A stretch of DNA of 41,105 nt, taken from assembly GCA_035708165.1 (NCBI GenBank), contig DASSSZ010000002.1, positions 1 through 41,105 of the forward strand. Direction: 5' to 3'. The DNA is from Minisyncoccota bacterium. GTDB taxonomy: Bacteria > Patescibacteriota > Minisyncoccia > Phycocordibacterales > UBA2100. This document shows, piece after piece, positions 30,582-32,307 of this stretch; within the stretch, counting starts at the first letter, position 1; every line of letters begins with the position of its first letter. The notes under the pieces are model-generated. The model had not been told where the DNA came from, ran no database searches, and saw only the letters and a program-made list of their open reading frames with translations. Both the position numbers and the translations under genes were made by a program.

Positions 30582-32307
30582 CAATCCGACACGCGATCTG
30601 CAAACTCTTTCGTTCTGTCCGAAGCTATGCCAGTCTTTCCCGGCTGTCTGGATGGGGTTAGGGACATACCATCATTGTCCGTTCCGTGCTCAGCTGAGAC
30701 ACAGAACATCGACGATTCAATCGTGCATCCCGTAGGATGCGCGACGGGTTCCATTTTGGAATGAATCCACGAGCAGCTTCCGCTACCCGTGCCTTGTTAC
30801 GACTTACTCCCTGTCACCGAATTCACCTTAGGCCCCGATAAACGGGAACGTCGGGTGCTCCCGGCTTCCTTGAGTTGACGGGCGGTGAGTACAAGGCTCG
30901 AGAACGTATTCACCGCGGCATGCTGATCCGCGATTACTAGCGATTCCACCTTCACGGAGTCGAGTTGCAGACTCCGATCCGAACTGAGGTGGCATTTAGG
31001 GATTTGCTCCGCCTTGCGGCATTGCGCCCCGTTGTTTCCACCATTGTAGCGCGTGTGCAGCCCGAGACATCAAGGGACATGCTGACTTGGCGTCATCCTC
31101 ACCTTCCTCCCCCGTGAGGGGGCAGTATCGCCTGACACTTGTAACAGGCAACAAGGGTTGCGTTCGTTACCCCACTTAAGGGAACAATTCAAACCACGAA
31201 CTGACGACAGCCATGCATCACCTGCCTAGGACCCTCGAAGGCTTCCCTGCTTTCACAGGGCGTGCACCTAGGTTTCTAGTCTCGGTAAGGTTTTCCGTTT
31301 AGCGACGAATTAAGCCACACGCTCCACCGCTTGTGCGAGCCCCCGTCTATTCCTTTGAGTTTTAGCCTTGCGGCCGTACTACCCAGGCGGATCGTTTAAC
31401 GCGTTAGCTACGCCTCCCAGAGGGTCGATACTCCGGAAAGCCAACGATCATCGTTTAGGGCCAGGACTACTGGGGTATCTAATCCCATTCGCTACCCTGG
31501 CTTTCGTGTCTCAGCGTCAGGAACGCGCCAGCAAGCTGCCTTCGCATTCGGTGTTCCCCATGATATCAACGGATTTCACCCCTACACCATGAGTTCCGCT
31601 TGCCTCTCGCGCCCTCGAGTCATGCCGTTTCACCCGCGATTCCGAGGTTGAGCCCCGGGCTTTAACAAGTGACTAACATGACCGCCTACACACCCTTTAC
31701 GCCCAATAATTCCGGGTAACGCTTGGGGCCTCTGTATTACCGCTCCTGCTGGCACAGAGTTAGGAGCCCCTTATTCGTAGAGTAACGTCAAAAATTCCTC
31801 CTCTACAAAAGATGTTTACGTACCGAAGCACTTCATCCACCACGCGACATCGCTCCGTCAGGCTTGCGCCCATTGCGGAAGATTCTCGACTGCAGCCTCC
31901 CGTAGGAGTATGGGCCGTGTCTCAGTCCCATCGGTGGGGGCCGGGCTCTCACCCCCCCTAAGCGTCATAGCCTTGGTGAGCCATTACCTCACCAACAAGC
32001 TGATACTGCGCAGGCCGCTCCAGAAGCGAAAAAACTTTACTCTTGCGAGACTATCGGGAATTATTCCGGATTTCTCCGGGGTATGCCCGACTTCTGGGTA
32101 CGTTCCTACGTGTTACTACCTCGTCTGCCATGGGTCTAAACCCATTCGACTTGCATGCCTTATCCATGTCGCCAGCGTTCACCCTGAGCTAGGATCAAAC
32201 TCTAAGTAAAAGATCCCGAAGGATCCTTTTTCAATAGATCGGACAGAACGAAAGAATCAACAGACTCTCTCGCTCACAAACTGGTTATTTGCGTACGTGT
32301 CGGATTG
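30582..32307. repeat. 16S precursor processing stems (leader/trailer complementarity)
   Basis: 30606-30622 is the exact reverse complement of 32239-32255 (17 bp); 30582-30593 is the reverse complement of 32296-32307 (12 bp). Confidence 0.85.
30758..32210 (-). rRNA. rrs: 16S rRNA (~1450 nt, Parcubacteria-like, no large insertion; ends approximate)
   Basis: AGAGTTTGATCCTAGCTCAG, ACTCCTACGGGAGGCTGCAG, GTGCCAGCAGGAGCGGTAA, ATTAGATACCCC, AAGTCGTAACAAGG, and helix 45 with a GGAA loop. Confidence 0.98.

Follow-up and report, generated by a model that had tools for sequence, protein, structure and literature searches.

The anti-Shine-Dalgarno (anti-SD) sequence is among the most conserved sequences of bacteria, and its essential roles come to light in lineages that do without it. 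An earlier note on the DNA studied here had stated that anti-SD loss is on record for CPR bacteria, and this is borne out by Tsurumaki, Saito, Tomita and Kanai (2022, RNA 28:1041; PMC9297842), in whose data just 48% of Parcubacteria had a CCTCCT motif. The set without an anti-SD overlaps with the group that lacks uL1, SD helices are thought not to form, and the authors note that the pattern of protein loss is similar to that of the mammalian mitochondrial ribosome (PMC9297842).

We analysed a stretch of 41,105 nt (“the window”) together with the genome to which it belongs, labelled G000, which comprises 749,969 bases in six contigs (C1–C6), is 96.97% complete and has a GC content of 64%. Like the anti-SD-less Parcubacteria of Tsurumaki et al., it lacks CCUCCU at the 3′ end of its 16S rRNA as well as uL1, and its bS1 is short, so that it shares the overlap with the uL1-lacking CPR group. 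G000 probably belongs to this published subgroup, and the trait is common to its whole order. The loss itself is therefore already known from Tsurumaki et al. (2022), who report only the absence of the motif. The increments are modest and form a coherent picture, i.e. the new sequence of the tail, the absence of any replacement for the SD, a leaderless-type geometry of −10 boxes, a covarying hairpin between tail and trailer, and class-mates that still carry CCUCC and yet are already SD-blind and Era-less. A literature search on leaderless initiation and SD use in Patescibacteria or Parcubacteria retrieved no paper linking the two.

Genome-wide SD-independent initiation is also typical of the SD-blind ribosomes of Bacteroidia (Jha et al. 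2021; Naeem et al. 2026, PMC13000453). Bacteroidia keep CCUCC, which is sequestered by bS21/bS18/bS6, and its ablation is costly (PMC13000453). The ribosome of F. johnsoniae ignores SD motifs, but the anti-SD is still needed for the autoregulation of rpsU and for rRNA processing, the latter possibly through Era or YbeY (PMC13000453). Paceibacteria with a canonical tail resemble this state, in that the anti-SD is kept and unused. In contrast, G000 does not have a ribosome of the Bacteroidia type with a retained and sequestered anti-SD and a strong SD on rpsU: CCUCC is gone, rpsU is devoid of an SD, and Era is absent.

Deinococcus is one of the bacteria that are rich in leaderless mRNAs. Further examples are Mycobacterium and Streptomyces (Cortes et al. 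2013 and Jeong et al. 2016, as cited in PMC12641261). G000 shares with this group a −10 box whose short distance to the AUG is fixed and a strong preference for ATG, but leaderless-rich bacteria keep a canonical anti-SD and use SD motifs on their leadered genes, whereas G000 has no anti-SD at all. A further likeness is that to the mammalian mitochondrial ribosome, which translates leaderless mRNAs with fewer ribosomal proteins and with a 12S rRNA that lacks an anti-SD. The Era homologue ERAL1, which binds helix 45, has been kept in mitochondria, whereas the lineage of G000 has no Era.

A 16S rRNA without the anti-SD core

The sole 16S rRNA gene of the genome is located at 30755–32210 on the minus strand of the window, where positions 1–1533 of the SSU_rRNA_bacteria model are matched with 1380.7 bits (Rfam RF00177, full-length). 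Read as RNA, its 3′ end is GUCGUAACAAGG-CACGGGUAGC-GGAA-GCUGCUCGUG-GAUUCAUUCCAAAAUGGAACCC. Helix 45, i.e. CACGGGUAGC-GGAA-GCUGCUCGUG (30768–30791, minus strand), is intact, with a 10-bp stem and a GGAA loop. The stem shows compensatory changes across the relatives, and a gene for KsgA/RsmA, which is responsible for the dimethyl-adenosines of helix 45, was found in the genome. Helix 45 is followed by the tail GAUUCAUUCCAAA (30755–30767, minus strand), which has AUUCC at the place where the anti-SD core CCUCC is expected. The E. coli counterpart, GAUCACCUCCUUA, can be aligned to it without gaps, and the alignment reveals the substitutions C1533U, A1534C, C1535A and C1536U, which turn CCUCC into AUUCC.

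The earlier note had described an intact helix 45 followed by a tail without CCUCC, and both the sequence and the coordinates were as it gave them. It had also named another 16S copy with CCUCC as a finding that would refute the loss. A single 16S match was obtained across all six contigs, it lacks CCUCC, and no second 16S gene was found. A longer mature tail would not contain the core either, as CCUCC is absent from the 480 nt past the 16S end; the nearest downstream CCTCC lies outside of the rRNA, at a distance of 514 nt from position 30790 and about 480 nt from the 16S end. In this genome, a probable member of the Paceibacteria (CPR), the only 16S rRNA has thus truly lost the anti-SD core by four substitutions.

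The trailer contains a putative second hairpin, GCAUCC-UAC-GGGAUGC (30725–30740, minus strand, by direct reading), which is probably part of the processing stem of pre-16S rRNA. By eye, the trailers of the related loci L002, L011 and L012 have at this site a second hairpin of the same shape with another sequence, followed by a UGAC-like word. Farther downstream, about 780 nt from the 16S gene, lies a gene for tRNA-Ile(GAU) (29902–29975, minus strand; ARAGORN and Rfam).

Large insertions in rRNA genes are typical for CPR bacteria. The 16S matches of two relatives (L018 in genome G004 and L019 in genome G027) span 2411 and 2227 nt, respectively, and thus contain large insertions. The 23S rRNA gene of G000 is found on another contig (C6:99736–103170), so that the rRNA genes are unlinked; its span of 3435 nt, compared to a model of 2925 positions, suggests an insertion of about 500 nt. 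A placement in Parcubacteria (GTDB class Paceibacteria) is consistent with the genome size of 0.75 Mb, with the lack of uL1 and Era, with the separate location of the rRNA genes and with the insertions in the rRNA genes of the relatives.

Initiation signals at gene starts

Genes were called with a crude self-trained codon-usage model, which yielded 655 genes covering 81% of the genome. No enrichment of purines or of G was found at the 655 predicted starts. The earlier note had suggested that GGAAUGAAU-type words might precede genes as a replacement for the SD; this was not confirmed by the words themselves, their positions or the duplex energies. GGAA was counted 36 times upstream of starts, compared to 37 and 45 occurrences in control windows, the respective values for GGAAT are 8 versus 8 and 11, and neither GAATG nor TGGAA is enriched upstream of starts. 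The mean energy of duplexes between the genome's own tail and the region from −22 to −3 is −2.79 kcal/mol, compared to −3.06 kcal/mol in the control window, and for the canonical tail the values are −3.76 and −4.08 kcal/mol. No class of genes forms more stable duplexes with the own tail than the control windows do, and the same is true for the relative G020. Word counts, positional histograms and duplex energies all speak against a replacement SD that is complementary to the new tail.

For comparison, the same pipeline was applied to genomes that use the SD. With 50 kb of E. coli it retrieved GGAG with a z value of 16.8 and a mean energy of −6.69 versus −3.69, and SD peaks were also obtained for G354 and G379, both of them CPR genomes from outside the class.

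Canonical initiation led by GGAGG-type words 5–10 nt upstream was not found genome-wide, with the exception of about 15 genes. AGGAG at −12/−11, often as AAGGAGG, precedes about 14 genes, compared to 1.2 expected. One of these genes is situated in the window (25394–26260, plus strand), with AGGAGG at −14 to −9 (25380–25385); its protein has no match to a Pfam family. About 14 further genes with AAGGAGG-type motifs (−12 to −9) are spread over C1, C3, C5 and C6, and most of the set are hypothetical or look secreted. No element of the G000 ribosome should read these motifs. The simplest guess is that the genes are a recent import from donors that use the SD. The retained classical SDs count against the explanation favoured below.

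Another recurrent word, AGTAATCC, includes a TAA stop codon and is found at gene ends in tight operons, 5–20 nt before the next start (e.g. C5:97499, C4:20773 and C6:84256). It may represent a stop-codon context or an intercistronic signal.

The prominent feature of the predicted starts is a T at −12, an A at −11 and a T at −7. TANNNT begins at −12, −13, −14 and −15 in 92, 43, 41 and 37 of the 655 genes, respectively (213 in total), compared to a background of about 6 per position, and the motif extends to the consensus TGnTATACT. When alternative in-frame starts are allowed, the box is found in 285 genes, whereas control offsets give about 60. Overall, the start codon of 206–285 of the 655 genes is preceded at 6–9 nt by an extended −10 box (TGnTAnnnT). 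The fraction of ATG starts is 96% (198/206) for genes with the box and 71% (317/449) for genes without it. With the hexamer at −12 to −7, transcription is expected to start on the A of the ATG. The high GC content of the genome makes this geometry unusually easy to see.

Three examples from the window have the hexamer exactly at −12 to −7. A murA-like gene (27933–29243) is preceded by the extended −10 box TGCTATGCT (29250–29258, minus strand), and a Mur-ligase gene (26344–27756) is preceded by TGCTACGAT (26329–26337, plus strand). Both start codons are right, because the respective Pfam domains, EPSP_synthase and Mur_ligase, begin at residue 6 of the protein and at position 2 of the profile. 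The third example is the gene of a TrwB/VirD4-like ATPase (22027–23937), with TATACT at 23944–23949 (minus strand). The earlier note had tied the anti-SD loss directly to a leaderless pattern in the window. The pattern is present, in the window as well as genome-wide, but a link that is specific to the loss does not hold, as four class-mates with canonical tails make no use of the SD either and one of them, G224, also has the −10 box beside its starts (see below).

The start regions (50 nt) are less folded than gene interiors (−10.8 vs. −15.3 kcal/mol). Many neighbouring genes on the same strand are separated by less than 20 nt, and this tight spacing fits coupling or re-initiation inside operons. 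A practical consequence is that gene callers with a model of the ribosome binding site will misplace starts in such genomes.

Spread of the loss and the tail-trailer hairpin

We compared the 16S 3′ ends of 40 genomes from the family and the order of G000. CCUCC is absent from all 24 distinct tails, which have the consensus G-R-A-W-U-N-W-W-U-C-M. Chance and assembly errors cannot account for the loss, because 24 distinct tails from independent assemblies all lack the core. In the sample of the class, the 16S 3′ end was assembled in 176 of the 301 genomes, and the exact canonical sequence GAUCACCUCC was present in 58 of these 176. A few further genomes have AAUCACCUCC, and the remainder shows many different degraded tails, so that about 60% of the assembled tails of the class have no CCUCC. 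Two families (f38 and f91) contain both canonical and degraded tails. For the other classes of the phylum, the exact GAUCACCUCC was found in 34 of 68 sampled genomes, which is about the share that has any assembled 16S end; the canonical tail is the rule there.

In one genome of the same order (G329, family f18), a canonical GAUCACCUCC tail goes together with a helix 45 that differs strongly (C6:260–305 of that assembly). The copy is 260 nt away from the end of its contig, has another 16S 3′ end next to it and probably represents a contaminant contig of that assembly.

The tail of G000 can form a mini-hairpin, UUCC-AAAAU-GGAA (30749–30761, minus strand), which comprises the former anti-SD position and the first bases of the trailer. 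It was tested with a script and with shuffled sequences, since in the MAFFT alignment the tails are ungapped and the 3′ arms are out of register due to different loop lengths. An exact 4-bp Watson-Crick hairpin exists in 15 of the 24 tails of the order, compared to about 1 expected and a maximum of 5 in 2000 shuffles. The arms covary, in that UUCC/GGAA alternates with UUCA/UGAA, and no hairpin is left when the fourth base is swapped. The stem is just 4 bp long, and 9 of the 24 tails have a weaker hairpin or none at all.

Several families with canonical tails have CUCCUU-UCU-AGGGAG at the same site. It is therefore probable that the hairpin is older than the loss and that compensatory changes have preserved it. 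As judged from the sequences, it is probably a feature of 3′ maturation. The constraint that remains in the order consists of U1537-C1538 and this short tail-trailer hairpin.

Era, order of events and alternative explanations

The KH domain of Era reads GAUCACCUCC (Tu et al. 2011, as cited in PMC10582724). No match to Era above the cut-off was found in any of the five genomes tested, nor in 80 of 81 genomes of the class, many of which have canonical tails. Era loss is thus no marker that is specific to the lineages without anti-SD. The only Era gene above the cut-off among the 81 genomes (G063:C11:16566–17372, 235 bits) is either a retained gene or a contamination.

Other ribosome-associated genes did not serve as markers either. 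uL1 (PF00687) was detected in all 14 control genomes and had no match in G000 and four relatives; being absent from all five genomes, among them class-mates with a canonical tail, it was dismissed as a marker that is specific to the loss. IF3, KsgA, YbeY and a short bS1 were found in all five genomes checked and do not discriminate between them. The earlier note had proposed a comparison of the bS21 and bS1 content; apart from the short bS1 of all five genomes, it showed that G000 has kept bS21, a protein that contacts the SD helix in other bacteria, and this counts against the favoured explanation.

The relative G020, a single-contig genome with the same type of tail, has the same promoter geometry and no SD. 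Class-mates with canonical tails do not use the SD either. G224, a member of another order with the fully canonical tail GGAUCACCUCCUUUCU, does not use the SD and has a −10 box beside its starts; of the four class-mates with canonical tails that were examined, it is the only one that is GC-rich enough for a judgement on the box. No SD enrichment was found in three further Paceibacteria with canonical tails from other families (G116, G066 and G186). As four class-mates with canonical tails also make no use of the SD, SD disuse looks like a precondition rather than a consequence of the loss.

As far as the order of events can be read from a small number of unrooted genomes, decay of the tail probably followed the disappearance of both constraints. 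The pattern points to relaxed constraint and not to adaptation. Lifting of both known constraints on GAUCACCUCC across the class would explain why the tail decayed repeatedly and in varied ways. This reading fits the Flavobacterium experiments of 2026, in which the anti-SD was needed only for one SD-bearing gene and for rRNA processing. A more detailed history can be proposed tentatively, as a possible course that we would not yet rate as the probable one: SD-independent and largely leaderless initiation together with the loss of Era, at or before the base of the Paceibacteria, may have removed both known constraints on GAUCACCUCC, after which the tail decayed repeatedly and differently; the constraint surviving in the order would be an ancestral second job, i.e. 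pairing with the trailer in a 3′-maturation hairpin, kept via CUCC/GGAG to UUCC/GGAA to UUCA/UGAA.

The account as a whole, i.e. true loss of the anti-SD, SD-free initiation, leaderless −10 geometry, decay after constraints had been lifted and a maturation hairpin, appears to us to be well founded and likely. Translation would start without SD pairing and independently of any word complementary to GAUUCAUUCC. For at least one third of the genes, the extended −10 box would place the predicted transcript start on the AUG itself or a few bases ahead of it; judging from these predicted sites, initiation would be leaderless and probably of the 70S type. Operon-internal genes follow the stop codon of their upstream neighbour by no more than about 20 nt, and start regions are weakly folded. 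The tail most likely decayed since the mRNAs no longer use the SD and Era is missing across the class, and the hairpin and U1537-C1538 would be what stays constrained in the order, probably for 3′ maturation.

Alternatively, SD and anti-SD might have co-evolved, with pairing between the new tail AUUCAUUCC and a changed, GGAAUGAAU-like word in the mRNAs. UUCC is indeed still rich in pyrimidines, and AATCC, which is complementary to the GGAUU at the base of the tail, occurs within 25 nt of the start in 30 genes, compared to about 11.5 expected, an enrichment of about 2.6-fold. However, most of these AATCC matches sit in AGTAATCC, spanning the TAA of the upstream gene, and their spacing is not fixed. 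Moreover, GGAA, GGAAT, GAATG and TGGAA are not enriched, the duplexes of the own tail are not more stable than those in control windows in either G000 or G020, and the tail varies among the relatives at the very positions that would need to pair. Co-evolution is thus highly improbable. The same low probability is assigned to an artefact, i.e. a chimeric or degraded 16S gene, a contaminant contig, or an unassembled functional second 16S gene with CCUCC. The assembly is a six-contig draft of 97% completeness, and G329 of the same order has a canonical tail at a contig edge, but that copy looks like a contamination of G329 and not of G000. The full-length, high-scoring 16S match with its intact helix 45, the recurrence of the tail type in 24 independent assemblies including the single contig of G020, and the GC content and promoter type that the genes of the window share with the rest of the genome all speak against an artefact.

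Processing tends to stop at structures during 3′-to-5′ trimming, which lends some weight to a third possibility, namely that the mini-hairpin persists in the mature 16S rRNA as a structured 3′ cap replacing the single-stranded anti-SD. Such a cap could e.g. protect against exonucleases or fill the pocket of the SD helix near bS21. The conservation of the hairpin with covariation right at the tail and the retention of a long bS21 are in favour of it. However, class-mates with canonical tails pair CUCC(UU) with the trailer sequence AGGGAG, which is normally removed at maturation, and a stem of 4 bp is marginally stable. A cap would be compatible with relaxed constraint followed by tail decay, and we regard it as rather unlikely.

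The gene for bS21, rpsU, encodes a protein of 119 aa with a long C-terminal tail of low complexity. It is preceded by a −10 box 11 nt before the ATG and has no SD. At C3:92965–93714 it lies directly upstream of ybeY, and the same adjacency is found in the genomes G006 and G224.
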